A DNA stretch of 32,704 nucleotides from a virus (IMGVR_UViG_2778261231_000009:1-32704); one strand, 5' to 3'. Positions 2,229 to 25,136 are shown, counted from the first letter of the stretch. Notes: generated from the letters alone by a model not told the origin. Made by a program: numbers and translations.

Positions 2229-3292
2229 AGCAGCTCTACCTCAACGTTTCCTAATTTGAGCCATTCGACTTTCGTGGCATCGATTATCGGTTGAATATTT
2301 GCCGATGGTGTAACGATGTCATAGTCGGTAATACCCGGAATTAGAGAAATCAATGTCCCCGCCTGGCTGCGAATAAAAGCCACTCCAGGCTCTCGGCGCG
2401 AGTCATCGTCCTCCAGCGTTCCGGCGACAGCCTGTTTGGCTGCTGCGAGGGTGATGCCCTCCAGTGATACCTTCACGAGGACGTCAAATGTACGGATGAC
2501 AGGTATGAGCACCAGCGTGTTTTTTGCTGTAACAGGCCGGACATCGTCAATGTGAGCCTGCACCCTGTCGATCACATCCTGAGATGGCAGCCCACCTGCA
2601 GACGTGATCACAACATCAACGGTACCCGGCCCCCGCCGCAAAGGGTAAACATATGCGGCGGATACGCCTGATACCTCAAGCGCCCAGCGTTTGTAATCAT
2701 ATTTATTGCCGCCTGCAGGAGGTCGGCGGATGATTTCAAGCAGACGAGCAAGCAGCTCTGCATCCGTTTCCTCATCTGTTCCGCCAGTCATCAGGCCTAC
2801 TGTCACTGTGCTGTCAAACCCATCAGGTGTTGTGGTCAGTGTGGCCGATGTGACGGAAGTGGTGTTACCAGTGGTTCCGGCCAGAGAAGACACTGCGTTT
2901 ACCGATGATTTTCCATCTGACCCGACAATAATATCTTCGGTTGTTGTCCACGAAACACTGTCGCGTTTGAACACAAGACCGGCAGCGGCCACCGCTCCTG
3001 GTTCGCCGGTAAACGTGGCAGGCCCGGAGGCGCTGTTGGCTGCTTTTTTGCTTAAACCACGTAAACGGGCGTGCAGATAGAGGAATTCCGAATCAGCAGT
3101 ATCCGGAAAGATCTGACGGACTATCCATCCCTGATGCTGATAAAGCCCCTCGGCAACACTGGCTACACTCGATGCCCGGATGTACCAGTCGCTGTCCGGG
3201 CCCAGCGTATCATCTGACAACTGCAGGAGATTTTTGATATCCCGCAGAATGTCAGTGCGTATTTGCGCGGCATTTTTGGTAATGAATGGCAT
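2225..3292 (-). CDS. Baseplate J-like protein (Mu gp47 / W-like)
   Basis: 355 aa; size and synteny between the gp46-like and gp48-like genes; resembles baseplate J family proteins. Confidence 0.8.
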   Translation of the reverse strand: MPFITKNAAQIRTDILRDIKNLLQLSDDTLGPDSDWYIRASSVASVAEGLYQHQGWIVRQIFPDTADSEFLYLHARLRGLSKKAANSASGPATFTGEPGAVAAAGLVFKRDSVSWTTTEDIIVGSDGKSSVNAVSSLAGTTGNTTSVTSATLTTTPDGFDSTVTVGLMTGGTDEETDAELLARLLEIIRRPPAGGNKYDYKRWALEVSGVSAAYVYPLRRGPGTVDVVITSAGGLPSQDVIDRVQAHIDDVRPVTAKNTLVLIPVIRTFDVLVKVSLEGITLAAAKQAVAGTLEDDDSRREPGVAFIRSQAGTLISLIPGITDYDIVTPSANIQPIIDATKVEWLKLGNVEVELL

Positions 3293-3642
3293 CAGCTGAC
3301 CTTAACCGGATATTTCCAGGTCTGCGGCGTTCCGCTCGCAGACGTGACGGTGATATGAAGCAGCATCCAGCCTTTTTGCCAGTGCTCTGCAGTAACGGAA
3401 ATGGACTGGGCGCGACCGTCGTCAATAATCGGTTGCAGGGCCTGCCGCGAATACTGCACCGCGAGTTGTTGAACGCGAGACACATCCTTTTCGCGGCGGA
3501 GTGTATGCAAAAGAGAGCCCAGAGTTGGATCAGCCCACCATGAGCCAAGGGGCGTCATCAGCCGTAAGTAGACGGCATTCGCTAAAGAGTCTGAGCTGTC
3601 GCCGGTATAATCGCCGGTCGTTGGATCAATCAACATTTCCAT
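3292..3642 (-). CDS. Baseplate wedge protein, GPW/gp25-like (Mu gp46 / V-like)
   Basis: 116 aa; synteny; start codon lies inside an 8-bp inverted repeat and is preceded by the conserved late motif. Confidence 0.75.
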   Translation of the reverse strand: MEMLIDPTTGDYTGDSSDSLANAVYLRLMTPLGSWWADPTLGSLLHTLRREKDVSRVQQLAVQYSRQALQPIIDDGRAQSISVTAEHWQKGWMLLHITVTSASGTPQTWKYPVKVS

Positions 3643-3663
3643 GCCGTAATACTACCGGCATGG
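3639..3663 (-). promoter_or_regulatory. Inverted repeat CCATGCCG-N9-CGGCATGG containing the V start codon; the spacer contains TAGTAT
   Basis: Seen directly on the plus strand (ccatgccgtaatactaccggcatgg). Confidence 0.5.
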
Positions 3664-3678
3664 AAATTTAAATTATCG

Positions 3679-3700
3679 GTGAAGGGGTTCAGTGGGTATT
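3679..3700 (-). promoter_or_regulatory. Conserved late motif, copy 1 (upstream of baseplate gene V): ATACCCACTGAACCCCTTCACC on the coding strand
   Basis: Same core as the other two copies; 24 nt to TAGTAT, then 6 nt to ATG; sits in the 89-bp Q-V intergenic gap. Confidence 0.6.
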
Positions 3701-3731
3701 GCTTTTGAAGGAGAACTTACGTTACCACAAA

Positions 3732-4337
3732 TTACATTTGCTGATTAGGTTTCTGCGTTGTGCCTGCATCACCGCCGTGGTCGTGGTCGTGACCGTCATA
3801 AGTCTCACGCATGGTGTTCAGCGTAGACTTGCCGTCAGCGACTTCATTACTGCCTTTCAGCAATGGTGTATCAAAATCTGCCCGCTCTGAGGCTGTGGTT
3901 TTATACGTTTTGGTATTAACAATATGTTGTTCGGTATTCACCGTGTGCTTTTTAGTATTAACGATATATTCATCGCAGTTTACTTCAATTATTTTTCCGC
4001 GCTTCAGAATAATGTTGCTTCCTTCATCCGAATAAATGGCAAGCTCACCACTTTTCAGGCTCTTTAGCCTGTATGCAGCGTGTTCCGTGGCAATCACCAC
4101 GCTATGACTGGTGCGCCCGTTAAGCGGGAGCACAATGGCTTTAGTCCCCCTGGGCGGGTTGGATGTAAAACCGTACTGCTGAAACATCTCCACATCCTGC
4201 AAAGACTCAGTGGCCAGACCTTTACCCTGAATGGTCTGAATATCACCACCGCTGTTAACCCTTATTAAAACGCCCCTGAAGGCCTTTCTTATACGGTTTA
4301 ACGCCGTGTTAATACGAGAGTCAATTTTGTTCCACAT
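3732..4337 (-). CDS. Baseplate spike / assembly protein V-like (Mu gp45 / Q-like) with His-rich C-terminus
   Basis: 201 aa; C-terminal HDHDHGGD resembles metal-binding spike apexes; internal tandem VNT-type peptide repeats. Confidence 0.75.
   Translation of the reverse strand: MWNKIDSRINTALNRIRKAFRGVLIRVNSGGDIQTIQGKGLATESLQDVEMFQQYGFTSNPPRGTKAIVLPLNGRTSHSVVIATEHAAYRLKSLKSGELAIYSDEGSNIILKRGKIIEVNCDEYIVNTKKHTVNTEQHIVNTKTYKTTASERADFDTPLLKGSNEVADGKSTLNTMRETYDGHDHDHGGDAGTTQKPNQQM
3912..3975 (-). repeat. Three imperfect tandem ~21-bp repeats inside the spike gene, encoding IVNTKKH/TVNTEQH/IVNTKTY
   Basis: Seen directly: ggtattaacaatatgttgttc / ggtattcaccgtgtgcttttta / gtattaacgatatattcatc on the plus strand; coordinates approximate. 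Confidence 0.5.
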
Positions 4338-5538
4338 CGATAATCTCCAGCTCTTTATTTACTTTGGCGCGACGCTTACGTGATTTGCGTTTTTTCGGAT
4401 AAGCATCCGGTATCCATATTCCATCCTCTTTGAGCCGCAGGGTGGTAATGGTGTTGTCTGGACGACCACCTGAAAACTCTCTTCCCATGAGGAAGTAAAT
4501 GTCATCAATGCCATGTGGCTCGCTTCGGACACGAATACGCTGGCCCGGTTGCCATAACTGACCGTTCTCCATGCGATGGCCTTTAACAATTACTGTCAGA
4601 TCAAACCCGTTCAGACGGGCGTCAGCCATGGCCTTTCTCGCGCGATAATCAACCTGCGCCTGATTATCAGCATCACCAGCAACCATAATCTGCGGACGAT
4701 AGAAAGGTACGGTACTGTCGCGAACGGTACTACGTAAGCCATGAAAGCCATTCTCTGCAGAGCCGGTGCTGTCATAAATTGCGTCGGCATCATCATCGTC
4801 TTCAGCCTCAGCGCTCTGATCATCAACGTCAATAACTTCCAGTCTTCCTGACTTTTTCCCCTGGCCGTGTCCCTGTGCCAGCATTGTCAGTTCAGAGAAC
4901 GCACCGGTAATGGATGACCGGTCACTGAGATCGAGGACATTATTTCCCCGACCGTCACGATTCAGAACAAGCGTGGCTACAGGGTCTTTTGTGTAATCCG
5001 GCCCTCCAATTACCAGCGTGCCATCTGGCTCAAACCATGGCCATAACCCGCGTGCAGCAGCTGCACGCTCAAGGGTATCCCACGCACGTTCTCCGGGCTC
5101 CACGCTGACCTTGTCATTACGCAGGGATGACTCAGCCTCGATGCGGATGTTCGTTATCCCCAGCGGTCTGACAACCTGGGCGATCACCTCTTCAAGACTG
5201 AGCTGGCGGGAGGTAAAAACGGGTGAAGCGCAGTCAACAAGCACGGCTGCACCATCGCGACCGGAAAGAGATAAAGAAACCTGCTGACGGGATACCCGGC
5301 GCTGAACCACATCCACCCGACCGGACATGACAACATCATTACCCACCCTGACCAGCACCGGCACACCACGTTTAATGGCCGGAGGGAAAATACCATCAGG
5401 CAGCCCAAGCGTTACGCTCCATGCATCGGAGGGGATCAGAAAATCGGAGTCAATCTGATAGCGGCTCCATGCACTATGGATTTTGCCATCAATAACCAGG
5501 CTCACTGTATTCTGCGAATCTTTATCTTGAGTAGGCAT
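4321..5538 (-). CDS. Baseplate hub protein, Mu P (gp44)-like
   Basis: 405 aa; synteny downstream of the N-like gene; start overlaps the upstream gene end. Confidence 0.8.
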   Translation of the reverse strand: MPTQDKDSQNTVSLVIDGKIHSAWSRYQIDSDFLIPSDAWSVTLGLPDGIFPPAIKRGVPVLVRVGNDVVMSGRVDVVQRRVSRQQVSLSLSGRDGAAVLVDCASPVFTSRQLSLEEVIAQVVRPLGITNIRIEAESSLRNDKVSVEPGERAWDTLERAAAARGLWPWFEPDGTLVIGGPDYTKDPVATLVLNRDGRGNNVLDLSDRSSITGAFSELTMLAQGHGQGKKSGRLEVIDVDDQSAEAEDDDDADAIYDSTGSAENGFHGLRSTVRDSTVPFYRPQIMVAGDADNQAQVDYRARKAMADARLNGFDLTVIVKGHRMENGQLWQPGQRIRVRSEPHGIDDIYFLMGREFSGGRPDNTITTLRLKEDGIWIPDAYPKKRKSRKRRAKVNKELEIIDVEQN

Positions 5539-6853
5539 TCAGAACGTCACCGGCTTTGATATTGTTAGGATTACGTAGTGTCGGATTGAGACGCAGCAAC
5601 TCGGCGGCGCGCGTGTAGTCCTCATACCACAGGTGGGCCAGCAAATGCAGGTTTGTGTCGGACAATACCACTCGCGTAGTCAGTGGTGGTCTGCTGGTAA
5701 TAACCGCTGAGCCCAGCTCCTGAACGGTCAGGGCGATATCCTTGAGACCTTCAACCACGGGTTGCCAGGTCACGCCACCAGGTGTTTCACCGGCACTCAG
5801 GTTTTGCGTATCAGCAGCAAAGGTGTCCCGCGTCTGGTCGATTGCCTCCTGAATGGCCGTCCTGGTGTCGTTGGTGATCTGCTCAATATCAACGGGAGAC
5901 AGAATATCGCTGATGCTGCTGTCACTGAGTATGTCGGAAGCATCAAGTGCCAGCTGGATTGCAACCTGAGTTTTTACCGCCGTTACCAGCTCGGTAATAT
6001 CCGAGGTTGATGAGCCTGCCGGAACGGCAACAGCAACCGTTTTTTTCCCGGTCACTATCTGCTGAGGTAATGCGGCCACATCCTGCAGATTGTTACGGCC
6101 ATTCTTCCAGTCGGCCATCACGATGCCTGCTGTGCCGGAAACGTCTGAGGACTGTGAATAGCTTCCTGGATTATTACTGACACTTGATTTGGACTGAAAC
6201 GACGTCAGACTCAGCGCACTCTGCAGGTCATTCATGAACGATTTTGGGTAATTAACAAAATCCGAGGTGGTACTGACAAATCCCGTCAGTTCCCCCTTAA
6301 GCACGGTCACCATATTCAGCGTCGTGGTTGCCAGCGATTTCGCTTTTTTCATCCACTTTTTCGCTGTACGCAGAGGCGAGAGAATATTGTCGATGGCCGT
6401 CTGGGCTTTCTCCAGAGCGGATTGCGCCTGGTTGAAAACGATATCAGCTTTCGACAGCGGGAAATCGCTGCCAAAGAAAGGCAGATTAAGTCCCCCCTGG
6501 ATAAAGACCACTTCGACAACGCAGTAATCAACGTTCTCCGCTTCATGCGATGCCTGATACTCAATGCACTGCATGCCCGTCATGGAGCCGAAAACGGGAT
6601 GAATTAATTCTGCGCTACCGCGAGTATCCAGTGCGGCCAGAAACGCCTGCAGCCGCACATCATAATCATCACCCCAGAAAAGGACTGTCATCCGCAGGTT
6701 ACGAGGCTTGCGGCCAAGATCATCAACATCACCACCGTCGACATAGGGATACTCATACGTCGCAATGTCGCGACTGGCGCTGTCACGGGTATTAACCACA
6801 TCAAAGCGGACGCCCCTGAATGAGGCATCCTGTAATGAATCTTCCCAGCTCAC
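5522..6853 (-). CDS. DNA circularisation protein N (Mu gp43)-like, with LysM-like C-terminus
   Basis: 443 aa directly after the tape measure; C-terminal …YEDYTRAAELLRLNPTLRNPNNIKAGDVLNAY looks LysM-like. Confidence 0.8.
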   Translation of the reverse strand: MSWEDSLQDASFRGVRFDVVNTRDSASRDIATYEYPYVDGGDVDDLGRKPRNLRMTVLFWGDDYDVRLQAFLAALDTRGSAELIHPVFGSMTGMQCIEYQASHEAENVDYCVVEVVFIQGGLNLPFFGSDFPLSKADIVFNQAQSALEKAQTAIDNILSPLRTAKKWMKKAKSLATTTLNMVTVLKGELTGFVSTTSDFVNYPKSFMNDLQSALSLTSFQSKSSVSNNPGSYSQSSDVSGTAGIVMADWKNGRNNLQDVAALPQQIVTGKKTVAVAVPAGSSTSDITELVTAVKTQVAIQLALDASDILSDSSISDILSPVDIEQITNDTRTAIQEAIDQTRDTFAADTQNLSAGETPGGVTWQPVVEGLKDIALTVQELGSAVITSRPPLTTRVVLSDTNLHLLAHLWYEDYTRAAELLRLNPTLRNPNNIKAGDVLNAYSR

Positions 6854-9018
6854 TGCGGGCCTCCTGTTGAGCCGCGAACGGATTGTTCGCCGTTGTATTC
6901 ATTAACAGCTGATGCAATTTCACGTCCGTCTAATACCAGCTTTGTGGTGAGGTTAATTGGTTGTGATTTTTGTTGCTGCTGGGGCAGCAGATAAGACGAT
7001 ACGCCTGTGGTTGCTGGTGTGTTTTGACCCATAGTGGCCGGTGAACTCCACCATGATTTGATCTCATCCACGGCATCCAGCAATCCGGGGCGGGCTTTTA
7101 CTGCATCCAGCATGCGTGCTGACTCACTGGAATAATTGTCGACCTTGAGTCTCGCACGCGCATCAGCATCGCCTCGCTCAACATGAACGAGCGGCGCATC
7201 CTGCATGCCCTGGTAGAGTGCCAGCGGAGCAGCAACGCGCCCCAGAACTTTACCTGCACCACCCCGGATAGCGGACCAGGTGCGCCCCAGAGCAGTACCG
7301 CCAGCAGACGGAACTCCCCCTGCAGGAGAACCAGGCATTTTTATTCCGCCCCCCGTCAGGAAATTGAGCCCGGCAAAAGCTACAGCCGCTGCTGTCATGG
7401 CTTTAATGCCAGTGGTGGCACCTGCAATCGCAGTGGTTAGCCCCGGATACTCACCAGCATATTTGGTTAATTTTTCTGAAATGTCACCCAGTGCATCAGA
7501 TAAAGGGGCAATGGAATCCATTGCAGCAAAGTCCTGTTCGTTTTTTAACTGCCCAGTTTTATATCCCGGCTGTTCTGACATTAAAGCAAAGTTGATGTTA
7601 CCGGCAGTATTACCAACTGGTAAATTACGTTGTGAATTCGCCCCTGAAATTACGTCTTGGGTGTATTTTTTATTCCCTCTATACCCTAATAGAGCTAATA
7701 GCGCCTGCTGGTCAGCAATAATTTTACCTATACCAGAACCTTCAAGAATCCTTGCTTGCGAACTAATTATATTTTTACGTTCACTTTCCGGTGCTGTTTT
7801 GAGTTTATCTTCAAGTTTTTTATATGCTGGATTTGAAGCCACAATTTTATCAACAATCGTGTTAAAAGCTTCTAGAGGATTTATACCGTTACCAACAGCT
7901 TTTGCAAGACTTCCAGAGAGGTCAATTCCTTTACCGCTGGGTAGTTTAATCCGTGCTGCAGCGTTAGCAGCATCCTGACTATTCAGCTTTAGCAATAAAT
8001 TATTAAGGTTATTACCGGCCTCGTCCGGTGAACCTGATGTAATAGCTGACGCCTGGTTCCAGCCAAGCAAGACGGCAAAATCATCAAGACCTTTCATACC
8101 GACATTGCCAGCACTGGCAAGCTGCTTAGGAAGCCACTTAGCCATATCTTTCAATTCAAAAGAGCCACTTTGCCCAGCGCTAATTGCCATATTAAGTGCA
8201 GACTCAAGCTCACCGTCTTTTATGCCAAACGATTGTTTTAATTTTATGGCAATATTTGCCAAATCTTCTGGAGCTGCGCCAGTGGCTGTGGAATATTTTT
8301 GAATTAAAGGTAGCATCACCTTTGCTGACGGCATATCAACAGCCCCTGAAGCCAGCATTGTATCAAGGGTATCAGCTGCTGATTCTTTTGTTCCGCCGCC
8401 AGCACGAACAGCCTGGCGAACCATCGAATCCATCTCCACCATTCCTTTTCTGCGACCTTGCAGCCCTTCATCGGCATAAGCAGTATTGGCCATCATTGCA
8501 AGTCGCTGGCGATAGTCCATCTGTTTAGATACTGGTGTTGATAATACGGCCCCTGCAGCAGCAATCCCGCCAGCAACTGCAGCAACGCTGGAACCAGCAG
8601 CACGAAAGCGCTGCATGCGCGTCATTGAGTCATTCACGCCACCAAGTTCAGTCCGCAGCGTTTTGACCCTGTCAGTCATGGCCCTGAAAGCCCGATTCTG
8701 CTCATTCGCGGACAGCATGCCTGTGCGGGTAAGGCGGTTGTAGGCCGCCATGGTCTGCTGTATTTCACGCTGAATATCGCGCTCAGAACGAATACCAAGG
8801 GTAGATCGCGCCGAGCTGGCGCGACGGTATTCCTCAATCAGAGAACGGGAGGCACGAATCGCTGTGGTTGAGTTCTGCTGGCGGGATTTCGCCAGCTCGT
8901 CATCGGTCTTTTGCGCCGCTTTGGTATCACGGCTGATGCCCTGCAGTGCCTGCTTAAGCACTTTAGAGCCGGTATCACGGGCAAGCAGCTGCAGCGCCAG
9001 TTGTAAGTTACGCGCCAT
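6850..9018 (-). CDS. Tail tape measure protein
   Basis: 722 aa, Ala/Gly-rich with coiled-coil character, immediately downstream of the frameshifted chaperone; contains an AT-rich central segment. Confidence 0.85.
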   Translation of the reverse strand: MARNLQLALQLLARDTGSKVLKQALQGISRDTKAAQKTDDELAKSRQQNSTTAIRASRSLIEEYRRASSARSTLGIRSERDIQREIQQTMAAYNRLTRTGMLSANEQNRAFRAMTDRVKTLRTELGGVNDSMTRMQRFRAAGSSVAAVAGGIAAAGAVLSTPVSKQMDYRQRLAMMANTAYADEGLQGRRKGMVEMDSMVRQAVRAGGGTKESAADTLDTMLASGAVDMPSAKVMLPLIQKYSTATGAAPEDLANIAIKLKQSFGIKDGELESALNMAISAGQSGSFELKDMAKWLPKQLASAGNVGMKGLDDFAVLLGWNQASAITSGSPDEAGNNLNNLLLKLNSQDAANAAARIKLPSGKGIDLSGSLAKAVGNGINPLEAFNTIVDKIVASNPAYKKLEDKLKTAPESERKNIISSQARILEGSGIGKIIADQQALLALLGYRGNKKYTQDVISGANSQRNLPVGNTAGNINFALMSEQPGYKTGQLKNEQDFAAMDSIAPLSDALGDISEKLTKYAGEYPGLTTAIAGATTGIKAMTAAAVAFAGLNFLTGGGIKMPGSPAGGVPSAGGTALGRTWSAIRGGAGKVLGRVAAPLALYQGMQDAPLVHVERGDADARARLKVDNYSSESARMLDAVKARPGLLDAVDEIKSWWSSPATMGQNTPATTGVSSYLLPQQQQKSQPINLTTKLVLDGREIASAVNEYNGEQSVRGSTGGPQ

Positions 9019-9021
9019 GGA

Positions 9022-9254
9022 TTATCTCCGTTTGCCGACTTTCTTCCGGCGTTGCGATTTGACAGTGCGGGTTGTACGGGTGGTGGTTTGCCCGGTTTTC
9101 TTTCCATGTAACCGGGCAAGCGCTTCGGTGTAGCCGTCGAGTTCCGTTCGGGTCATGCTTCCTATTTGTTGTTCACTGATCCCGTATCGCCCGAGGGCAA
9201 GGACGAGGGTTCGGTACCCGGTGAGCTTTTGTTCAAATCCATCCGCTTTTTTTT
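9022..9254 (-). CDS. -1 frameshift extension of the tail assembly chaperone (G-T-like fusion product)
   Basis: From the slippery site the -1 frame stays open for about 74 codons (…ADGFEQKLTGYRTLVLALGRYGISEQQIGSMTRTELDGYTEALARLHGKKTGQTTTRTTRTVKSQRRKKVGKRR) and stops at TAA (plus 9022-9024) 3 nt before the tape-measure ATG. Hand-translated. Confidence 0.55.
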
Positions 9255-9545
9255 AATGGCTTCAATCTGAGCATCGATGAGATCGAAATCATCATCATTC
9301 AGTTCGTTAAGTAACAGCTCTGCCGTGATTTCTTCCTTCTGCAGGTCTCCGAGGGAAGTAATTGCACACGCCATCACCGCAACGCGGTAATACATGTTTG
9401 CGGCTGCACCTTCGGTAGTGCCGCAGGCTTCATCGGTTGCCCGCAGCGCTTCAATGGTATCGCTCACCACAGGCAGCCTGACGGCAAAGTCAAAATGGAC
9501 TTTATCACCGCATTTAACGCCATATAAAAGTTGCTGCTTTTCCAT
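9162..9545 (-). CDS. Tail assembly chaperone (Mu gp41 / lambda G-like), zero-frame product
   Basis: 127 aa between tail tube and tape measure; contains the A_AAA_AAG slippery run near its 3' end. Confidence 0.7.
   Translation of the reverse strand: MEKQQLLYGVKCGDKVHFDFAVRLPVVSDTIEALRATDEACGTTEGAAANMYYRVAVMACAITSLGDLQKEEITAELLLNELNDDDFDLIDAQIEAIKKKRMDLNKSSPGTEPSSLPSGDTGSVNNK
9246..9254 (-). promoter_or_regulatory. Programmed -1 ribosomal frameshift slippery site (A_AAA_AAG within an A8 run)
   Basis: Minus strand reads ATT AAA AAA AAG CGG; identical heptamer to the E. coli dnaX slippery sequence; location matches the conserved chaperone frameshift of tailed phages. Confidence 0.6.
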
Positions 9546-9920
9546 TTATTCCTCCACCCGACGAAGCGCATTCATGGTGATATCGCGCTTCGCTTCGTTG
9601 TCGACGGTATACTGAGCCCCGACCTGAGTGCTGAAACAGTCCAGGTAAGAAACACGTTTACCGCTGCTGTTAAGTGGATACAGGGTGATTTTCGCACCTT
9701 CAATACCGCCCCAGTTCAGGTCGCCGGATTCCGGGATAACTACCGTAACGGTCAGCTGGATCTCTTCAATGCCACGGGAAAAACCTTTGGCACGTCCCGT
9801 TTTGTTCATCGTCTTAACCAGCTTGCGTCCAGTGGTCACATCTTCCTTGAGGTCAGTCACTTCAATTTCCTGGCCGTCGACTTCCATGACGATCGCGCCA
9901 ACATATTCTTCAAGGGCCAT
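9546..9920 (-). CDS. Tail tube protein (Mu M / gp40-like)
   Basis: 124 aa immediately downstream of the sheath gene; size and synteny. Confidence 0.8.
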   Translation of the reverse strand: MALEEYVGAIVMEVDGQEIEVTDLKEDVTTGRKLVKTMNKTGRAKGFSRGIEEIQLTVTVVIPESGDLNWGGIEGAKITLYPLNSSGKRVSYLDCFSTQVGAQYTVDNEAKRDITMNALRRVEE

Positions 9921-9933
9921 TATGGTTTACTCC

Positions 9934-11352
9934 TCAGAGCAGCAAATCAATTCGACCGGCAAAGACGTGCAGGCCATTCACAACATCCGCAGGGATGCGA
10001 CCGTTCAGCTGGTTAACATCCTGCAGATCGCGCTCTACAATAAGTCCGTTTTTGTTGGCATCCACCTCCTCGACAATCTCCAGCTCCTCCAGCTTGTAAA
10101 GCACATCAAGCAGTTCACTGCGCACCTTCGGAGGTGTTCTTGAGCTGAGCTTGTCGCGCGGGAATCGCAGAGCGATGCGTTCACGGCAGGCCTTGCGCAC
10201 ATAGTCCAGCGTTCGGATGGTGGTGATATCCAGCAGCGCCACATCATCCACGCCCTGGGCGTTTTTGGTGTAGGTGCTGATCGCGCGAACGATTTGCACT
10301 TTGTCACCGGGGCCAATCTCAAACGGCGTAAGACCATTCCGCAGGGCGTTCTCCTGCTCAGTTCGCCCTGGCTGACTCTCTACTGCAGTCACGTCCAGCG
10401 TGCTCATCGCAAGGGTGTTCAGCGGGCGTGCCGGGTCCTCTTCACTGGCGATAACAGCAGCATAGGCAGCGGCGATCTGCGCCGGTGTTTTTACCGAACC
10501 GCTATGCCAGCCCAGCGTGATACGTCCGTCATTAAGTGAAGCTGCCAGTGCAATGCCGGTGGAAAGCGACTTGCGCCACCCACCCACACCGATTGCGCCG
10601 CGCTGTTCCATCGCATTGCTGACGTTTGTCAGATGGTTACGCAGCGCCGTCATCGCCTCCTGGGTGGAGAACGGACAAACAACAATGTTATGACCTGCTG
10701 AGAACGCCGCTGCCAGCGCTGGCGTAATATCCGGATCAACATTGCCGCCTGCAAGCGTGGTGGTCGCCGCTGTGATACCCGCTGCCGTTACGCCGGAAGA
10801 GACAATAATGTCGTTACCAACCGCCCCTTTATGGCGGCAGGTCAGGGTCACTTCCCCCGCGTTTGCTGTTGCCGTCACTGGCAACCCGTCTTTCTGGGTA
10901 ATCAGTTCCGTCAGCGCTGCCGCAATGGTCTCCGCCGTATCTGCTGCCGAAATACCGACATCAATACGGGTACCATTAATGGTCACGCTCAGCTTCCCGC
11001 CGGAAGATGCTGTGCCGGTCAGGGCGATTTTGCCCGTCGCGGCTGTTGCAGTGGCCGCATCGCTGACCCCGACGATCTGCAGCTGCAGATAGGGGTAGGC
11101 ACCGATGGCCGCTGTGGCCATCAGATGCGCCAGCGAGCCACGGCCAAAGTACGTCGCAGCTTCTTCATCAGAGAAAACAGACTGAATGACAAGCGGTGCA
11201 GACAAACCGGAGGCCAGCATTGGCGCAATCATCAGCACCTTCTGGGTGTTACCTGGCAGGGTACGAACGGCCAGGCGGGTGTTGAACTCAATATACTGAC
11301 CCGGCTTGCGGTTCGTACCGATAGTGTCAAAGCTGATATTAGGACTGCTCAC
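9934..11352 (-). CDS. Contractile tail sheath protein (Mu L / gp39-like)
   Basis: 472 aa; size, synteny and Gly/Ala/Thr-rich composition typical of sheath proteins. Confidence 0.85.
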   Translation of the reverse strand: MSSPNISFDTIGTNRKPGQYIEFNTRLAVRTLPGNTQKVLMIAPMLASGLSAPLVIQSVFSDEEAATYFGRGSLAHLMATAAIGAYPYLQLQIVGVSDAATATAATGKIALTGTASSGGKLSVTINGTRIDVGISAADTAETIAAALTELITQKDGLPVTATANAGEVTLTCRHKGAVGNDIIVSSGVTAAGITAATTTLAGGNVDPDITPALAAAFSAGHNIVVCPFSTQEAMTALRNHLTNVSNAMEQRGAIGVGGWRKSLSTGIALAASLNDGRITLGWHSGSVKTPAQIAAAYAAVIASEEDPARPLNTLAMSTLDVTAVESQPGRTEQENALRNGLTPFEIGPGDKVQIVRAISTYTKNAQGVDDVALLDITTIRTLDYVRKACRERIALRFPRDKLSSRTPPKVRSELLDVLYKLEELEIVEEVDANKNGLIVERDLQDVNQLNGRIPADVVNGLHVFAGRIDLLL

Positions 11353-11560
11353 CGTTCACCTCCGCGCTGGGCTCGCTGCTTTTGCTTTTGGTGTTCTTGT
11401 CACTGCTGGTGACAATAATCAGATCACCGGCCATTACCTGACGCTGGTAATAAGCGGTGTTCTCCACCTCAAGGGGTTCCGCATCAGTAATGTAGCGGCG
11501 CGCATTATCTTCGCGCGGCACGCTCAACCCTCTGGCGGCTTTTACTTTAATTTTGCTCAT
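11339..11560 (-). CDS. Small tail-associated protein, Mu gp38-like
   Basis: Internal start MSKIKVKAARGL… chosen from track ORF 11339..11584 to minimise overlap with the upstream gene; synteny before the sheath. Confidence 0.55.
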   Translation of the reverse strand: MSKIKVKAARGLSVPREDNARRYITDAEPLEVENTAYYQRQVMAGDLIIVTSSDKNTKSKSSEPSAEVNGEQS

Positions 11561-12206
11561 GACTGATAATGTCCTCTGCTGCATTGTCTTTATCAGGCTG
11601 CTTAAGATCGTAACTGAGTCGGGTTCTCAGCCATGCCGGGTCATCGTCGGTAGTGGCACCGCCATAAATCCGGAACATATGGTCAGCATGGTCTTCCGGC
11701 GCAGCCGTGAGCGGGTAACGCCCGTTCTCCAGCGCCGACTCAATCCACTTTGTGTCGAACTCACAGGCAAAAACGGAAAATGCCTGAGATTCTATCTGGG
11801 TGTTGAAGAGCGTGCGCACGCGACCAGGGCTGAGCGGGTCGATTTTGATACCCGTATCGGCCATATCCTGACCCGACAGCAGACGACGAACGGCGGCGAC
11901 CAGAATATACGTCCCCACCTCCTGCACATGCGGCCCCCCCATTCGGGCCGCTTCTTCACTGCGCAGGCTGCGCTCGCCAACCACCACGACAAAGCGACCG
12001 TGGGTGACAAACCGTTGCCGTGCTGTGCTGTACGGCTCGGTTTTTTGTACCCCGCCGAAGGTCACCCAGACCGCAGGGAGCTGGCGCAGCACCTCCGCAG
12101 GTTCGCCGTCCAGCTCGCCGCCGTAGGAGCGCACGTTCTTCACCATACGCCCCATACCTTTACGAAGGCGCTCCACGATGGCTTTTTCGATATCCGTAAT
12201 CACCAT
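11547..12206 (-). CDS. Head-tail joining / tail completion protein, Mu gp37 (K)-like
   Basis: 219 aa; synteny between gp36-like and gp38-like genes. Confidence 0.7.
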   Translation of the reverse strand: MVITDIEKAIVERLRKGMGRMVKNVRSYGGELDGEPAEVLRQLPAVWVTFGGVQKTEPYSTARQRFVTHGRFVVVVGERSLRSEEAARMGGPHVQEVGTYILVAAVRRLLSGQDMADTGIKIDPLSPGRVRTLFNTQIESQAFSVFACEFDTKWIESALENGRYPLTAAPEDHADHMFRIYGGATTDDDPAWLRTRLSYDLKQPDKDNAAEDIISHEQN

Positions 12207-12634
12207 CAGAAACTTCCTCCACCAGTCTGGTCACGCCCGAAGACGCGACCACCAGACACCATCCGCGCACCGGTTCCGCTTTTCACCACTTCCCCCGTCG
12301 TCGTGCGGCCCAGATTGATTCGCCCGGATGCAACTTTTTCCAGGTAACGAACGGTGTCTTCATACCGCTCGCGGATTTCATCTGTCATCTGGGTCTCAGA
12401 GCCGCACAGAAGGTAGCGGGCGATGTTGCAGCAGCGACCGACGAGAACACGGGGCTCATCAGCCCAGGGCACCGGATAGCGACCGCAGAGATAACCGTCG
12501 ATTTCAGCGCTGGCCTGAATGAGTGCGCCGTTCAGCACATCATCGTCAATCTGCCCGGTATAGCTGCGGTCGGTGAGCGACACGCACTCACGCTCACCAA
12601 ACGCCCTGACCATGTCCTCACGGTTCGCGTACAT
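12206..12634 (-). CDS. Head-tail connector protein, Mu gp36 (J)-like, DUF1320-type
   Basis: 142 aa; synteny downstream of the major head gene. Confidence 0.7.
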   Translation of the reverse strand: MYANREDMVRAFGERECVSLTDRSYTGQIDDDVLNGALIQASAEIDGYLCGRYPVPWADEPRVLVGRCCNIARYLLCGSETQMTDEIRERYEDTVRYLEKVASGRINLGRTTTGEVVKSGTGARMVSGGRVFGRDQTGGGSF

Positions 12635-12637
12635 GGC

Positions 12638-13045
12638 TTACCCCTTCGCCTTTTTGTCCGGGGTTTGCGAACCGGCCTTCAGCGAATCCAGCTCCTGACG
12701 CAGTGCATTGCGTTCAGTTTCCAGTTCTGCGATGGTGCTGTTTGCACTGGTTAGCTGCTGCTTAAGTGCATCACCATCCTGATTGAGCTGCAGAACCGTC
12801 GCCTCCAGTTCGCTGATGCGTACCTTAAGGCCGTCACGCTCAGCGATCAGGGCGGAAACAGCATCATCACCCCCTGAGATTTCAGGCACATCCTGCAGGC
12901 GGACCACAATCAGATTGGGATCGTTTTCCAGAATCTGGAGTTCGCTGTCGCTGAACTGGTCATCCGGCCAGGTGACAGTATTCGCGCTGTGGGCGATGCC
13001 GAGACGGCGAAAACCGTTACGGCGGGCAGTGATTTGAATCGGCAT
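12638..13045 (-). CDS. Coiled-coil protein at the Mu gp35 position, unknown function
   Basis: 135 aa; C-terminal half strongly heptad-like (…RISELEATVLQLNQDGDALKQQLTSANSTIAELETERNALRQELDSLKAG…); start overlaps the major head stop. Confidence 0.55.
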   Translation of the reverse strand: MPIQITARRNGFRRLGIAHSANTVTWPDDQFSDSELQILENDPNLIVVRLQDVPEISGGDDAVSALIAERDGLKVRISELEATVLQLNQDGDALKQQLTSANSTIAELETERNALRQELDSLKAGSQTPDKKAKG

Positions 13046-13953
13046 TATGCGTCCTCCCCGGTAGAGCCATACGCCATCTGCCAGAAGCCGTAGCCACCGT
13101 TTGCACGTGCTTCAGCACCGAAGAGAAACTTCTTACGCATCATCACGTTGTCAGAGTTGTAGTCGGTCTGCTCAACAAAGACTGGTTTCTTACGCTCCTG
13201 GTAAATCAGGGGCTTCACGGGCTTGGTGTTATCCAGAAGGAACCAGGCGGTATCAGACGTCAGCTCAGGGACAACCATAACCTCAGCCGTCCCCTTGTAA
13301 GGGTTTGGCGTATTGTCCGGGAAGCGGTCAGCCGTCATCAGGTAGTTGGCATCATCTTCAAGAGCCGGAGGCACAACCAGGATGGTCGGGCGAATTTTCA
13401 GGGATGCGCCTTCATCATCCTTCAGGCTGCGCATGGCGGTTCGTGCAGCGCCGTAACTTGCTTTTGCTGCGGCAAGCGAGGTGACGGCAAGCTTTTTCGT
13501 GCCTTTGTTAGAGACCGACTTGCCACCGGAAAGGTGGTCGGTATCAAAGAAGGGCTGACCATCGTAGCAAAGGTTGGTGAAGCCGTTGTTCAGGAGTGCA
13601 AAGACGATATCGGCTGGCAGTTCGGCAGCGGACTGGCCCGCACCTTTAGCCTGCAGGGCATAGCCCATAATCTGATCGTCTTCGATATCGTTACGCTCAA
13701 CTTCAACCGTCGCTTCCCAGTCTTTATTGCGAATGGTGTAGTTGAACGCGGCGAACGCTTTAATAACCTTGTCGCCAATCCACTCACGCATTTTCGGGAA
13801 ACGGCTCAGCCAGCTGTAGTCGTTCTCTTTCCCGGTCGACGGTACCACCATCGCAATCTTCTGCCAGTCGGACGGCGTCTGATCAAAGGCGTTCTGGAAG
13901 GTCGCTTTCAGATTAATGAAAATCTGACGCACATTTTTTACGTTAATTAACAC
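13045..13953 (-). CDS. Major head subunit (Mu T / gp34-like)
   Basis: 302 aa; synteny after the protease/scaffold gene; resembles Mu-type major head proteins. Confidence 0.85.
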   Translation of the reverse strand: MLINVKNVRQIFINLKATFQNAFDQTPSDWQKIAMVVPSTGKENDYSWLSRFPKMREWIGDKVIKAFAAFNYTIRNKDWEATVEVERNDIEDDQIMGYALQAKGAGQSAAELPADIVFALLNNGFTNLCYDGQPFFDTDHLSGGKSVSNKGTKKLAVTSLAAAKASYGAARTAMRSLKDDEGASLKIRPTILVVPPALEDDANYLMTADRFPDNTPNPYKGTAEVMVVPELTSDTAWFLLDNTKPVKPLIYQERKKPVFVEQTDYNSDNVMMRKKFLFGAEARANGGYGFWQMAYGSTGEDA

Positions 13954-13966
13954 GGTTCTCTCCTTA

Positions 13967-14359
13967 TTAAATCAGAACCCAGACGCCATCATTCTCAAGA
14001 CCCAGCACCTTTCCGGCGACCGGGCGGGCGTTGGTATCACTGGTTTTAGCCACTGTCTGGCTGTCCACCACGTAGCAATCTTTGCCAATCTGCGTCTGCG
14101 TGACCGCGTCAGCAGTGCTGTTGGCCAGGAACCAGGCTTTACCACGACGAACCAGCACGCTCGCATCACCGGCTGCACCTGCAGAGTTATCCACCCAGCC
14201 ATCACAGATGCCGAGGGTGGTATTGGCTGCAGTGGCGCTGCCTGGTACAGCAAAGCCCGCTGCGTTGGCCGCAATAATGTGGCCGCCAAAGAGTTCAGTG
14301 GCTGCCGCAACCGGGACGGCAAACAGCTGGCCGTCGCGATAAGGGGTATGACGATCCAT
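13967..14359 (-). CDS. Putative head decoration/structural protein, DUF2190-like
   Basis: 130 aa, Ala/Gly-rich, between the protease/scaffold and major head genes. Confidence 0.55.
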   Translation of the reverse strand: MDRHTPYRDGQLFAVPVAAATELFGGHIIAANAAGFAVPGSATAANTTLGICDGWVDNSAGAAGDASVLVRRGKAWFLANSTADAVTQTQIGKDCYVVDSQTVAKTSDTNARPVAGKVLGLENDGVWVLI

Positions 14360-14370
14360 TTCGCTCTCCT

Positions 14371-15486
14371 TTATTTGAGGTATTTCGCGACGCTTTCCGG
14401 GTCATTGCCCATCATGGAGCAGATGGCCGGGTCAATCGCATCATCTTCAGCACCCTGTGACGGGTGTGACGGAAGGCCTGCAGGCGGTTGCCCCTGAGTC
14501 TGACTGGTCGTCAGTGCGGCAATCTTTGGCGCTTTTTCGATAAAGGCGGTAAGACTGGCCGGATCGGATTTCGCCAGTGACGCAGCCCATGCCTGCTGTG
14601 CCGGAAGCAGACGACCGTCGCCGAGGGCAACCGTAATCAACGCTTCAGCCTGTTGCGTGGCGAGTGCGGCGGTATTACCCGCACCTGCACGCTCTGTTGC
14701 CTGCTGAACGGCTGAATGCATGACCTCCACCGAAACCCACTTAGCCGGGTCAGGCGTGTCGAGTTTCGCTGACAGGTCGGCGATGCTCTGCGCGTTCTGG
14801 TTCAGGATATCCAGCAGACTGACCGACGCCGCTGCAGTCCCCTGGCCATTGGAAATCATGGTGATGATTTTTTGCAGCTCAGCCATAATCTCTTCTTTCG
14901 TTGAGGCGGTTGGCAGATTGAGCATCCAGCGCAGGTTGCTCAGTAGCTCATTGAGAAATTCTTCATCCATTTCGGTCTGACCCTCTGTGGTTAAATGCGC
15001 GGCCATCAGGGAGGCGGCAGCAAGTAACACTTCCTCCATCCCGTCCACCGCTGGTGTATTGGTCAGCGCGGCGTTAAGCAACTCCAGTACCTGACCGGTT
15101 TTGTCGTAAGAAAATACGGGGGAAATAAAGCGATACTCTTTCGCCTCGACCATTGCAGCCGCAGCGGCTGTCCACTCGACATCGATGGCGAACAAACCCT
15201 CGCCATCCCGCCACTCCAGCTTTTTGAAGAATGCAGCTGCAGGCGCAGGCAGACCGTTTTTAGCGGCCCGAAGGGTCTGGTGTTCGTAGTCAAGGACATA
15301 GGGGGTGGCGCGGGCATCAGCAGCGGCAATAAGGCGCTCTGCAATTTCCCGCGTCATCAGCCAGGCGGCGCATTCGGTCGGGCGACCATCACGGGCGCGG
15401 AATTCACCAGCCGGAAAGAGCTGAATGACACCGGGAGTAGCGGTGTTAATTTCCTGGGTGAGTGAAGCGATGAGTGTCTTTTTCAT
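14371..15486 (-). CDS. Head protease/scaffold protein (Mu I / gp32-like)
   Basis: 371 aa; synteny; ATG has no Shine-Dalgarno and is abutted by a 7-bp inverted repeat, preceded by the conserved late motif. Confidence 0.85.
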   Translation of the reverse strand: MKKTLIASLTQEINTATPGVIQLFPAGEFRARDGRPTECAAWLMTREIAERLIAAADARATPYVLDYEHQTLRAAKNGLPAPAAAFFKKLEWRDGEGLFAIDVEWTAAAAAMVEAKEYRFISPVFSYDKTGQVLELLNAALTNTPAVDGMEEVLLAAASLMAAHLTTEGQTEMDEEFLNELLSNLRWMLNLPTASTKEEIMAELQKIITMISNGQGTAAASVSLLDILNQNAQSIADLSAKLDTPDPAKWVSVEVMHSAVQQATERAGAGNTAALATQQAEALITVALGDGRLLPAQQAWAASLAKSDPASLTAFIEKAPKIAALTTSQTQGQPPAGLPSHPSQGAEDDAIDPAICSMMGNDPESVAKYLK

Positions 15487-15506
15487 GGTGCCGACGATAC
15501 GGCACC
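15487..15506 (-). promoter_or_regulatory. Inverted repeat GGTGCCG-N6-CGGCACC abutting the I start codon; the spacer is the TATCGT hexamer
   Basis: Seen directly on the plus strand (ggtgccgacgatacggcacc). Confidence 0.5.
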
Positions 15507-15519
15507 ACTGCGGGGAGGT

Positions 15520-15738
15520 TCAGATGAAGAGGTTCAGTGGATTATCGCTGAGGATCGCTTTGGTTGTCGGCTTATCGGGTTTAGCAGACTGACGCCTGCG
15601 GGCAAAGTATCGGTCAGTGAACCACTCAGCAACTTTTATAACCAGCCCCCCTAAGATGCCAATGAAAACCCACTGCTGCGGGGTGAAATAATCAAGGAAA
15701 GCTTTGAATGTGTACAGTTGCCCGCTCCCGTAATGCAT
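15520..15738 (-). CDS. Small predicted membrane protein (72 aa) in the G-I spacer; may not be coding
   Basis: One hydrophobic helix (WVFIGILGGLVIKVAEWF); weak Shine-Dalgarno; its 3' end overlaps the conserved late motif. No gene is expected at this position in Mu. Confidence 0.3.
   Translation of the reverse strand: MHYGSGQLYTFKAFLDYFTPQQWVFIGILGGLVIKVAEWFTDRYFARRRQSAKPDKPTTKAILSDNPLNLFI
15523..15544 (-). promoter_or_regulatory. Conserved late motif, copy 2 (upstream of I): TAATCCACTGAACCTCTTCATC on the coding strand
   Basis: 17-nt core CCACTGAACCNCTTCAY shared with copies at ~3679-3700 and ~23680-23701; 24 nt to TATCGT, then 7 nt to ATG. Confidence 0.6.
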
Positions 15739-22750: not shown

Positions 22751-22979
22751 CGCGCACCTCTCTGGCTCGTTTGATGGACATATGTTTTGATGCCTGACTC
22801 TGAGCCACCCACGCGCCCAGATAGGTGAGATACAGCTCACCAGGAGTTTCGGGGCGGGTAACGGTGAGCCAGACCAGTACGAAGGAACTGACCAGGAAGG
22901 CCAGAAAAACGATGGTGTCTGACGTAGAGAGACGACCGGTGGCCGGGTTCGTCACCAGATCGCGCAGAGATATTTTCAT
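22716..22979 (-). CDS. Small membrane protein, holin candidate
   Basis: 87 aa with one strong helix (IVFLAFLVSSFVLVWLTV); ATG overlaps the endolysin stop. Confidence 0.5.
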   Translation of the reverse strand: MKISLRDLVTNPATGRLSTSDTIVFLAFLVSSFVLVWLTVTRPETPGELYLTYLGAWVAQSQASKHMSIKRAREVRDVGSSPENPEG

Positions 22980-23620
22980 AGCGCCGCCTTAGCGACATTC
23001 AGCCGCGCCACGCGGTCAGCCTGACCTTCAGCCGGAGGGTTGATACGCCGGGTTACGGCCAGAAAATTGCCTTTGTCAGCCAGCTCGTTGCAGCCATTTG
23101 CCTTCCAGTACCAGGCAGCGCTGCGGGCTGCGTTGAGATACTCCAGTAACAAATCGGGATTCGCGATGAGATCGAGGCCCAGCGCCTTACCGCAAAGGCG
23201 GTAATTATTGCGCAGGGTAATCTGAATCAGGCCACGTCCGCGAAAGCGCCAGCCATCGCCTGATGCTTCATTACCGTTACCCCCCTGATTTGCGTAAACA
23301 TAATTCGCCATTTTTTCAGGGTTACGGGTATAGCGTCGGGCAAATTCAATCTCGCAGGGCTCGATAATACGATTCTTATTGAGATCGAAGTCGCTGCGGA
23401 AAATACGCGCCACGCGCTCAGCATCAGAGTAATAGAGATTTTCACTGAGCCGACTGAAACCCGCGCTTTCATGGCCGGTTTGAGCAATAAAGGCGGCAAG
23501 TCTGGCGGGTGTATTAATTTCGAATTCAGCGGTGGCTTTACCGAATGGTTCAAACCATCGTTGCGCCATCACTGGCGAAAGAGCTGCTGCACGCTGAAAT
23601 TGTGGGAGTGTTAAAAGCAT
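22976..23620 (-). CDS. Endolysin, glycoside hydrolase family 19-like (soluble, no N-terminal signal-anchor)
   Basis: 214 aa; …AAFIAQTGHESAGF… and overall pattern resemble GH19 phage lysozymes; first gene after the late motif and a leader hairpin. Confidence 0.8.
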   Translation of the reverse strand: MLLTLPQFQRAAALSPVMAQRWFEPFGKATAEFEINTPARLAAFIAQTGHESAGFSRLSENLYYSDAERVARIFRSDFDLNKNRIIEPCEIEFARRYTRNPEKMANYVYANQGGNGNEASGDGWRFRGRGLIQITLRNNYRLCGKALGLDLIANPDLLLEYLNAARSAAWYWKANGCNELADKGNFLAVTRRINPPAEGQADRVARLNVAKAAL

Positions 23621-23621
23621 A

Positions 23622-23649
23622 ACGCCATCCGGTTAAAAAGGGATGGCGT
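23622..23649 (-). promoter_or_regulatory. Leader hairpin (9-bp stem, 10-nt loop) immediately upstream of the endolysin ATG, covering the GGA Shine-Dalgarno-like bases
   Basis: Plus strand acgccatcc-ggttaaaaag-ggatggcgt; seen directly. Confidence 0.5.
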
Positions 23650-23679
23650 CAGTATTTCATCGGGTTAGGTGAATAATCA

Positions 23680-23701
23680 GGTGAAGAGGTTCAGTGGAAT
23701 T
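23680..23701 (-). promoter_or_regulatory. Conserved late motif, copy 3 (upstream of lysis cassette): AATTCCACTGAACCTCTTCACC on the coding strand
   Basis: Same 17-nt core as copies 1 and 2; about 60 nt upstream of the endolysin ATG. Confidence 0.6.
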
Positions 23702-24200
23702 AGTTGTCAAACTGTACAACAAACTGATCTTTCTCTTCACTGTACCATTTCACTGTATATGAAAACACTCTATCAGAAACAGTCAAGTTACAGTGTCTCA
23801 CTGCATTAACCCGGTCATAACTCATTTGCGCGGGCTCAGAGAATTTTTCTCCATTCAGCAACTCTGTAAGAACAGAATGGACATCGGATGAATCACAGCC
23901 AGGTAAATCACCTTTGTAAAAATTAATCACTGGGGCAATAAATGCTAAAATGAACATCAGGACATAAACTGATAAGGGGCTAACATTTTTTCCGCCCTGG
24001 ACACTACTGGCATCATCCGAGTCTGATAATGCACTTCCGATTAATTTTTTTCTTTTAAATAGATACAATGGAATGACAATGAAGAATATGAATGCTGAAC
24101 CAATCCCCCAACGGGCAGGTCTTGCAATGTTATTGGTGATAGCATCTTTGTAAACAGCAACAGAAGCACCGAATATAATTAAAGCAATTAAAAACTCCAT
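23700..24200 (-). CDS. AT-rich moron: three-helix membrane protein with ~70-aa C-terminal soluble domain, unknown function
   Basis: 166 aa; hydrophobic segments at roughly residues 2-17, 32-48 and 75-95; region visibly AT-rich versus flanks (estimated by eye at high-30s % GC against mid-50s); occupies the slot between the Mor/C-like gene and the lysis cassette. Confidence 0.7.
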   Translation of the reverse strand: MEFLIALIIFGASVAVYKDAITNNIARPARWGIGSAFIFFIVIPLYLFKRKKLIGSALSDSDDASSVQGGKNVSPLSVYVLMFILAFIAPVINFYKGDLPGCDSSDVHSVLTELLNGEKFSEPAQMSYDRVNAVRHCNLTVSDRVFSYTVKWYSEEKDQFVVQFDN

Positions 24201-24213
24201 GTATATTACCTTT

Positions 24214-24648
24214 TTAAAAAAGTTCTTGTTGATTGATTGATGTGTTTTGTCTGTGCTGGCTTAGTAACTGCCATCCAAAACGATCGCTGAATCCATACTT
24301 AGGGCAAAGAAAGGTCATGGCCATAAGAGAGGATGAACCTTGTTCACGCACTTCGGCGAACTCGGCGAGAAAGCGGCGGTTGCGTAATTCACGAAGGGCA
24401 CGATCACAGCGCGGTAAATAGAGAACTTCTCCGCCGAAATTCTTGATGAGTAATTGGGTTTTATCATCGCCGATAGTATTGCGCAGGAGGGCTGCGCGGC
24501 TGGCCCCCATAGCGCGGAGGCCTTTACCTATCGGGAACGTGGTGCCACCAAAAGCAGAAAGAAGCTGCTCGGTCGCCGGGAAGCCTATCAGGTCAGCTAT
24601 TTGAATCACTGCTGATGGCAGCAGCTCCGTTACCTGTTCCAGATTCAT
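24214..24648 (-). CDS. Mor/C-family transcriptional activator
   Basis: Internal start MNLEQVTELLP…; GGEVLYLPRC… and the basic C-terminal half resemble Mu Mor/C; overlaps the 3' end of the GemA-like gene. Confidence 0.7.
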   Translation of the reverse strand: MNLEQVTELLPSAVIQIADLIGFPATEQLLSAFGGTTFPIGKGLRAMGASRAALLRNTIGDDKTQLLIKNFGGEVLYLPRCDRALRELRNRRFLAEFAEVREQGSSSLMAMTFLCPKYGFSDRFGWQLLSQHRQNTSINQQELF

Positions 24649-25069: not shown

Positions 25070-25136
25070 AATATTTCTCCTGTTGGTTGTCATTATCGCA
25101 GGCACTTTATGAAGTGCCTGCTGTAATGACTTACTT

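Follow-up and report, generated by a model that had tools for sequence, protein, structure and literature searches.

To our knowledge, leaderless mRNAs are rare in enterobacteria and their phages, and the few that are known come from single regulatory or isolated genes. The late transcript of P2 gene V, which heads an activator-dependent late baseplate operon, was reportedly described as leaderless by Christie and Calendar in 1985. Here we examine IMGVR_UViG_2778261231_000009, a viral stretch of 32,704 nucleotides (nt) with the gene order of a Mu-like transposable prophage (hereafter the window), in which three putative late promoters, preceding the endolysin gene lys, the head protease/scaffold gene I, and the baseplate wedge gene V (gp46), coincide with inverted repeats that take in the start codons. 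All coordinates refer to the whole window, and all features lie on its minus strand. Three described systems come closest. The lambda cI message made from PRM is a natural leaderless mRNA, and leaderless translation in E. coli requires AUG (PMC4965119); the middle and late mRNAs of the Thermus phage phiYS40 are likewise leaderless (PMC3594737). Long transcripts of T4 e, soc, 49, and I-TevI that come from upstream promoters fold a helix over the Shine-Dalgarno (SD) sequence and/or the AUG, and the RNA made from their late promoters is translated and does not include the 5' strand of that helix (PMC3014915). The late promoters of Mu have a recognisable -10 and no -35, and the site of Mu protein C is a 16-base-pair (bp) imperfect dyad centred at -43.5, with -52 to -34 required (PMC2582627). 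Masking of read-through RNA is thus known T4 logic; its proposed combination with sigma-70/Mor-C promoters and leaderless starts would be new.

Our preferred reading, to which we assign a probability of roughly 0.55, is that the palindromes belong to late promoters, that I and V have leaderless starts, and that the hairpins mask the start codons on read-through RNA while leaving RNA from the late promoters free. A single Mor/C-family activator would bind an 18-bp imperfect-dyad site at lys, I, and V, with the -10 following 23 bp downstream and no usable -35. At I and V, the -10 would sit in the loop of the inverted repeat and the start codon where RNA polymerase should initiate; the late-promoter RNA would begin with AUG, need no SD sequence, have an unstructured 5' end, and carry only part of the 3' arm. 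Read-through RNA from the upstream operon would possess both arms, and a hairpin of -16 to -20 kcal/mol would bury its SD-less AUG, leaving the I or V cistron silent on that RNA and translated only from the RNA of its own promoter. At lys, the late RNA would have a leader of ~24 nt and, with its predicted start in the 5' arm, would lack most of that arm, so that GGAUGG and the AUG would be free; both would be masked only in read-through (early) RNA, and the benefit would be that no endolysin is made from it. The gain at I and V is less obvious, and may lie in low, promoter-bound levels of the protease and the wedge protein. The sequences themselves show the motif and its spacings, the hairpins with their conservation and covariation, and the lack of an SD sequence; that the activator binds the motif, where exactly transcription starts, that read-through RNA exists, and how translation is affected are inferred.

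Genes I (14371..15486; Pfam Mu-like_Pro, E 6.9e-93) and V (3292..3642; Pfam GP46; PHROG baseplate wedge subunit) have predicted leaderless starts at A15486 and A3642, respectively. A first-pass annotation of this DNA had placed both start codons at or inside inverted repeats, and the palindromes it described are present exactly: GGTGCCG-TATCGT-CGGCACC-ATG at 15506..15484 for I, and CCATGCCG-GTAGTATTA-CGGCATGG at 3663..3639 for V, with the ATG (3642..3640) inside the 3' arm. Neither pattern recurs in 100 shuffles, and both helices extend beyond those first described. The I hairpin (GUGGUGCCG/CGGCACCAU, 15485..15508; -16.4 kcal/mol, z score -4.58) has 9 bp and a 6-nt loop, its 3' arm taking in the A and U of the AUG; the V hairpin (3635..3667; -19.7 kcal/mol, z -5.95) has 12 bp and a 9-nt loop, with the start codon within its 3' arm. 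The same annotation had found the -10-like hexamers 6 to 7 nt before the ATG (TATCGT, 7 nt, at I and TAGTAT, 6 nt, at V) and had recognised no SD sequence at either start, and both statements hold; the anti-SD pairings of I (-2.8 kcal/mol) and V (-3.2 kcal/mol) fall within the weakest four when 34 gene starts are compared.

The endolysin gene (22976..23620; GH19, Pfam Glyco_hydro_19) has a third hairpin, ACGCCATCC-N10-GGATGGCGT, at 23622..23649, extendable to 23620..23651 and then of 11 bp (-17.4 kcal/mol, z -5.9). Its 5' arm begins with the last T of the -10 and extends past the predicted start (~23644), and its 3' arm contains GGAUGG and the A of the AUG. The fold over the endolysin start region that had been proposed is real; the ~30-nt leader said to carry it gives way to a predicted leader of ~24 nt without the hairpin, and lys, which had been set apart as a contrasting case, has the same design as I and V, with a predicted start within the 5' arm. 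The predicted helices at the three genes (-16.4 to -19.7 kcal/mol) all include start-codon bases, and the predicted +1 lies downstream of the 5' arm (I, V) or inside it (lys). When folding z scores were computed for the 34 gene starts, the three lowest were V (-5.58), lys (-5.38), and I (-2.92), so that the three most structured starts are those of the three genes that bear the promoter motif described below. RNA beginning at the predicted late starts has an unstructured 5' end (-0.4 kcal/mol at I; z ~0 at lys).

The 32.7 kb contain exactly three copies of the 18-nt motif CCACTGAACCNCTTCANC as compared to 0.27 expected, and none of 100 shuffles reached three copies. All three are on the coding strand and precede lys (CCACTGAACCTCTTCACC, 23680..23697), I (CCACTGAACCTCTTCATC, 15523..15540, overlapping the stop codon of a holin-like open reading frame (ORF) of 72 amino acids (aa)), and V (CCACTGAACCCCTTCACC, 3678..3695). 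Within the motif lies the dyad TGAA-N4-TTCA, which is a clear palindrome in distant relatives (e.g., GCTGAAGCTCTTCAGC); the copy at lys is conserved among relatives. A -10-like hexamer follows each copy after the same gap of 23 nt: AATACT, read from the sequence, at lys (23651..23656), TATCGT at I (15494..15499), and TAGTAT at V (3649..3654), the latter two in the hairpin loops. If +1 is A3642, the dyad at V is centred at -43.5, and so is the dyad at lys with its predicted start set 7 nt after the hexamer. A consensus scan found no full sigma-70 promoter at the lys, I, and V late-promoter sites. A dyad centred at -43.5 and a -10 without a -35, as in Mu, lead us to classify the sites as presumably three Mor/C-type late promoters, with the activator presumed to bind the motif. 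Coordinated control of these genes had been suggested earlier from the shared design of their starts; the motif and its fixed spacing to the -10 make the case stronger than was then known. A sigma-70-like CCGACA-18-GATAAT just upstream of the I motif was considered and rejected, being at chance level and conserved only in part.

The candidate activator gene (24214..24648; 144 aa from ATG 24648) matches Pfam Mor PF08765 with 34.8 bits (cut-off 24.9) and PHROG 836, ‘late transcriptional activator’, with an E value of 1.8e-39. It is the only Mor/C-family gene found in the window, and the Prokaryotic Genome Annotation Pipeline (PGAP) likewise gives one in a 95%-identical E. coli prophage. Mu has two such activators (Mor, then C). 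With one gene only, the cascade appears to have two steps, early and then late, and no middle stage. The resemblance to Mu late promoters otherwise extends to the Mor/C-family gene just upstream of lys, to a shared imperfect dyad that ends ~22–23 bp before the -10 in the absence of a -35, to the dyad centre of -43.5 published for C (PMC2582627) and obtained here on predicted starts, and to promoters preceding lys and I. The motif itself is unrelated (CCACTGAACCNCTTCANC here as compared to cataaCCCC in Mu), the window would have no separate middle stage, and its third promoter precedes V (gp46), whereas that of Mu precedes P (gp44). Mu I has a leader of ~27 nt, Mu gp46 overlaps gp45 and has no promoter, and we found no report for Mu of a leaderless layout or of a -10 placed in a loop.

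We compared the starts in 23 I, 82 V, and 27 lys loci drawn from IMG/VR, GTDB genomes, and E. coli, which collapsed to 17 distinct upstream regions for I and 67 for V. A TAnnnT hexamer precedes the ATG by 6 to 7 nt in each of the 17 I regions, and an nAnnnT hexamer precedes it by 6 to 8 nt in 64 of 67 V regions; the latter pattern, also present in all 17 I regions, is found at only 17.6% of 820 control ATGs. C occupies position -1 in each of the 17 I regions and in 59 of 67 V regions as compared to 19% of control ATGs. The spacing between hexamer and start is kept while the sequence between them differs among relatives, and every locus that the contig and genome scans supplied (23 for I, 82 for V) starts with ATG. 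Among relatives of I the N-terminus MKK.. is kept from the ATG at 15486; among those of V the first ATG is invariant and the second is variable. A hexamer 6 to 7 nt before the ATG predicts a transcription start at C(-1)/A(+1) of the ATG, a favoured initiation dinucleotide, and the sequences thus point to I and V mRNAs that are probably leaderless. The leaderless mRNAs proposed in the first-pass annotation are in keeping with these comparative data and with the promoter geometry, the start sites being predicted rather than proven. A search of the literature joining leaderless and Mu-like terms found no paper dealing with Mu-like late promoters.

The upstream motif gives a similar picture. CTGAA is found 50 to 51 nt before the ATG in 17 of 17 distinct I regions and 50 to 52 nt before it in 42 of 67 distinct V regions, whereas at the leadered lys the distance is longer and varies (74–78 nt). 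Among relatives of lys, the block nA(T/C)ACTGAC is conserved even when they are divergent. The layout can also be found in named phages (TATCCT-6-ATG in SuMu and TACCAT-6-ATG in Mannheimia phage 3927AP2) and in Neisseria-type prophages (CAAAAT-6-ATG); one clade (L101/L102) differs in having a GGAG Shine-Dalgarno and a longer leader. For the clade to which the prophage of the window belongs, the 18-bp motif should be usable as a late-promoter predictor. As a separate observation, the region ~100 nt upstream of position 3001 in Neisseria-type Mu-like prophages (L096-L103) holds a strong intrinsic terminator together with the DNA uptake sequence GCCGTCTGAA, both just before gp46; there is no start-codon hairpin, yet CAAAAT still precedes the ATG by 6 nt.

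Relatives in which a hairpin is visible were chosen for measuring covariation at V and lys. In the 25 selected V relatives, 93.3% of cells are paired, five of nine pairs show compensatory change (19 cells), none of 500 shuffles reached the observed score, and no slid register came near it. In the 10 lys relatives, 92.6% of cells of the 11-bp helix are paired, four pairs show compensatory change, and again none of 500 shuffles reached the score. Among V regions not selected for a hairpin, 28 of 56 distinct ones have z < -2 as compared to 8 of 150 control ATGs. The I hairpin ends at the ATG in every relative, with arms that differ in sequence and a register that shifts.

These substitutions bear on the suggestion, also made in the first-pass annotation, that the palindromes are operators for a dimeric repressor that would cover the -10 and the start site. 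The inverted repeats do overlap the -10 and the predicted +1, and in the window the I and V arms both have TGCCG...CGGCA. Among relatives, however, the arms vary yet stay complementary (GCCG/CGGC, GTCG/CGAC, GCAGC/GCTGC, GCCCCG/CGGGGC, ATCGC/GCGAT), and the loop ranges from 3 to ~17 nt. In IMGVR_UViG_2924938396_000007 the arms of I (TGCTG/CAGCG) and V (GCCGA/TCGGC) differ from each other, and the arms of the lys repeat are unrelated. Arms that differ between sites and between relatives rule out a conserved protein operator, and we consider the repressor account highly improbable.

The proposed masking matches that of T4 gene e (lysozyme) even in the function of the gene, lys. It departs from T4 in that sigma-70-type promoters with a Mor/C-type activator would take the place of the gp55/gp33 promoters (TATAAATA), in that I and V have the -10 in the loop and a predicted leaderless product, so that there would be no SD sequence to unmask, and in that the transcripts upstream of I and V are themselves late; the masking here is deduced from sequence and folding. 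The predicted I and V messages share with lambda cI, P2 V, and phiYS40 mRNAs a 5'-terminal AUG, no SD sequence, and a -10 located 6 to 7 nt before the start. Unlike those cases, they would come from two operon-leading late genes, with a layout conserved across many Mu-like phages. They also have a covarying hairpin, in which bases before the -10 pair with the start codon, and we know of no such hairpin described for cI or P2 V. Mu itself (NC_000929, 9015-9059) has a PI hairpin, CTGCTCA-N10-TGAGCAG, 7 nt upstream of the I ATG. Its 5' arm ends at the start site implied by oligonucleotide design in PMC4461284, from which the Mu start sites used here were taken. Mu may thus use the same read-through masking with a leadered I mRNA.

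Several observations weigh against our preferred reading. Every start site given here is a prediction from the position of a hexamer. Directly after the V motif stands GATAAT, a second -10-like hexamer from which a transcript could carry the whole hairpin. Among named phages, Klebsiella phage ST405-OXA48phi1.1 carries GTG where the V start codon would stand, the sole exception to the all-ATG pattern. When the register is held fixed, covariation of the I hairpin is weak (66% of cells paired, with 21 of 500 shuffles scoring as high), because its register shifts among relatives. A strong hairpin is missing from about half of the distinct V regions, which nevertheless keep the hexamer-ATG spacing, and it follows that the hairpin is dispensable for the leaderless layout. 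A first wobble count on the selected V sequences favoured sense RNA (12 G.U against 3 A.C), but a neutral helix finder gave 8 G.T and 6 A.C mismatches, which does not settle the folding strand, and V antisense folds are slightly more stable on average. Finally, we see no clear reason why the first cistron of one late operon should be silenced on RNA from another late operon. Two further comparisons stand beside these points. In the Klebsiella phage (L185, MK388859.1, ~1390-1506), CTGAA is at -50, CATCAT lies 6 nt before the start, and the GTG is paired in a GTCCAC/GTGGAC helix. An upstream terminator was present in only 3 of 55 distinct V regions, so that the comparison of hairpin absence with terminators has three cases only.

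The GATAAT at V raises the alternative that late transcripts start before the 5' arm, in this case just before the hairpin, which would then act as a translational off-switch or stabiliser on the I and V mRNAs and be opened in trans. Com-dependent control of Mu mom is a precedent for such opening in the same phage group. We consider this alternative quite unlikely. V relatives do not keep GATAAT, no -10-like hexamer precedes the 5' arm at I, and the activator dyad would come to lie near -25, unlike the -43.5 of Mu. Relatives without the hairpin keep the hexamer 6 to 8 nt before the ATG, and opening of the hairpin would expose no SD sequence. The Com/mom-like unmasking invoked in the first-pass annotation is not needed, because late transcripts from the predicted starts would lack the 5' arm.

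The V wobble statistics, in not favouring the sense RNA strand, leave room for a role of the repeats in DNA: the leaderless promoters would be real, and the repeat, extruded by supercoiling or on replicating single-stranded DNA as a hairpin or cruciform, would present the -10 single-stranded or alter promoter melting, tying the firing of late promoters to the state of the DNA. The -10 hexamer always occupies the loop, late transcription is tied to the replication clamp by MuC-type activators (PMC12867686), and C works at open-complex formation at Plys, PI, and PP (PMC4461284). On the other side, the lys repeat is downstream of the -10 and cannot present the hexamer; the lys and I helices tolerate G.U (9 and 2, respectively) but no A.C (0 in both), leaning to sense RNA; stems of 7 to 12 bp extrude poorly; and the promoter is kept without any repeat in many relatives. 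We thus regard this explanation as unlikely. Its most specific form, in which a DNA hairpin offers the non-template strand of the -10 to sigma-70 and the late operons fire, leaderless, only on replicating templates, is very unlikely, although if true it would be the structural counterpart of the reported dependence of MuC on the clamp.

A last alternative is that the hairpins serve the upstream operon, as 3'-end protection, a pause, or a terminator-like element, their overlap with promoter and start being due to compact intergenic space. Each hairpin comes just after the preceding gene has ended and has a stable, GC-rich stem, and the scanner detected no intrinsic terminator between operons (activator gene-lys, G-I, or gp45-V). 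It also called none at the three hairpins, none of which is followed by a T-run, and we rejected them as intrinsic terminators for want of a U-tract. At V, moreover, the intergenic space is 89 nt, yet the hairpin ends on the start codon and encloses the -10 in dozens of relatives, a register that a 3' stabiliser does not need, and we doubt that the hairpins act for the upstream operon. A role as RNase III sites was rejected on general knowledge, stems of 7 to 12 bp being too short, and Rfam 15 gave no match at the gathering score across the whole window.

Dozens of Mu-like phages of enterics, Pasteurellaceae, and Neisseria keep this layout, with unchanged spacing, at two late genes that each lead an operon. 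A leaderless layout would thus be a lineage-wide rule rather than an oddity. Together with the covarying hairpin it would make a switch, in which the same AUG is translatable as the 5' end of an RNA and silent inside one. If our preferred reading is true, it explains how the endolysin, the head protease, and the baseplate protein are kept off read-through RNA without terminators between operons, and it offers naturally occurring mRNAs with which to study how 70S ribosomes initiate at 5'-terminal AUGs in E. coli, as well as better start-codon and promoter annotation in Mu-like prophages.

Every gene in the window is on the minus strand. Transposase A (30418-32475) is followed in order by transposase B, a GemA-like gene (start ATG 25069), the activator gene, lys, the terminase, portal, and G genes, I, the head and tail genes with gp44 and gp45, and V. 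The window proteins are 100% identical to those of an IMG/VR contig, and the DNA is ~95% identical to that of a prophage in E. coli FDAARGOS_1303 (NZ_CP070045.1, 1510755-1540268), in which PGAP gives I and V the same start codons as in the window. Near-identity DNA searches found no close phage relative in the INPHARED copy, and a scan of genome contigs yielded 3 loci.

Some features near the promoters are recorded here in their own right. Codon M173 of I (window position 14970) is an in-frame ATG with a moderate SD sequence (cagagggtcagaccgaaATG, -6.3 kcal/mol), located where the nested scaffold Z of Mu starts; from its sequence it could be a candidate internal start for abundant scaffold Z, in which case full-length I would be low and Z would come from its own ribosome site. 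The 72-aa holin-like ORF between G and I (15520-15738; Pfam Phage_holin_2_1, E 2.4e-9; PHROG holin, E 2e-6), whose stop codon lies within the I promoter motif, is far from the endolysin gene, and in the 95%-identical E. coli prophage PGAP has an opposite-strand ORF at its site. Between the activator gene and the lys promoter (within 23700-24200), a 166-aa ORF without a Pfam or PHROG match occupies an island of 36–39% GC with flanks of 50–58%, there is no terminator before lys, and close relatives have different sequences directly before the lys motif, pointing to a variable moron slot. A perfect 10-bp hairpin, GCAGGCACTT-cata-AAGTGCCTGC (25098-25121), stands just upstream of the start of the GemA-like gene and has no U-tract, and a perfect 12-bp inverted repeat, CCACGGGGAGCC-N16-GGCTCCCCGTGG (20559-20598), lies within the large terminase gene.

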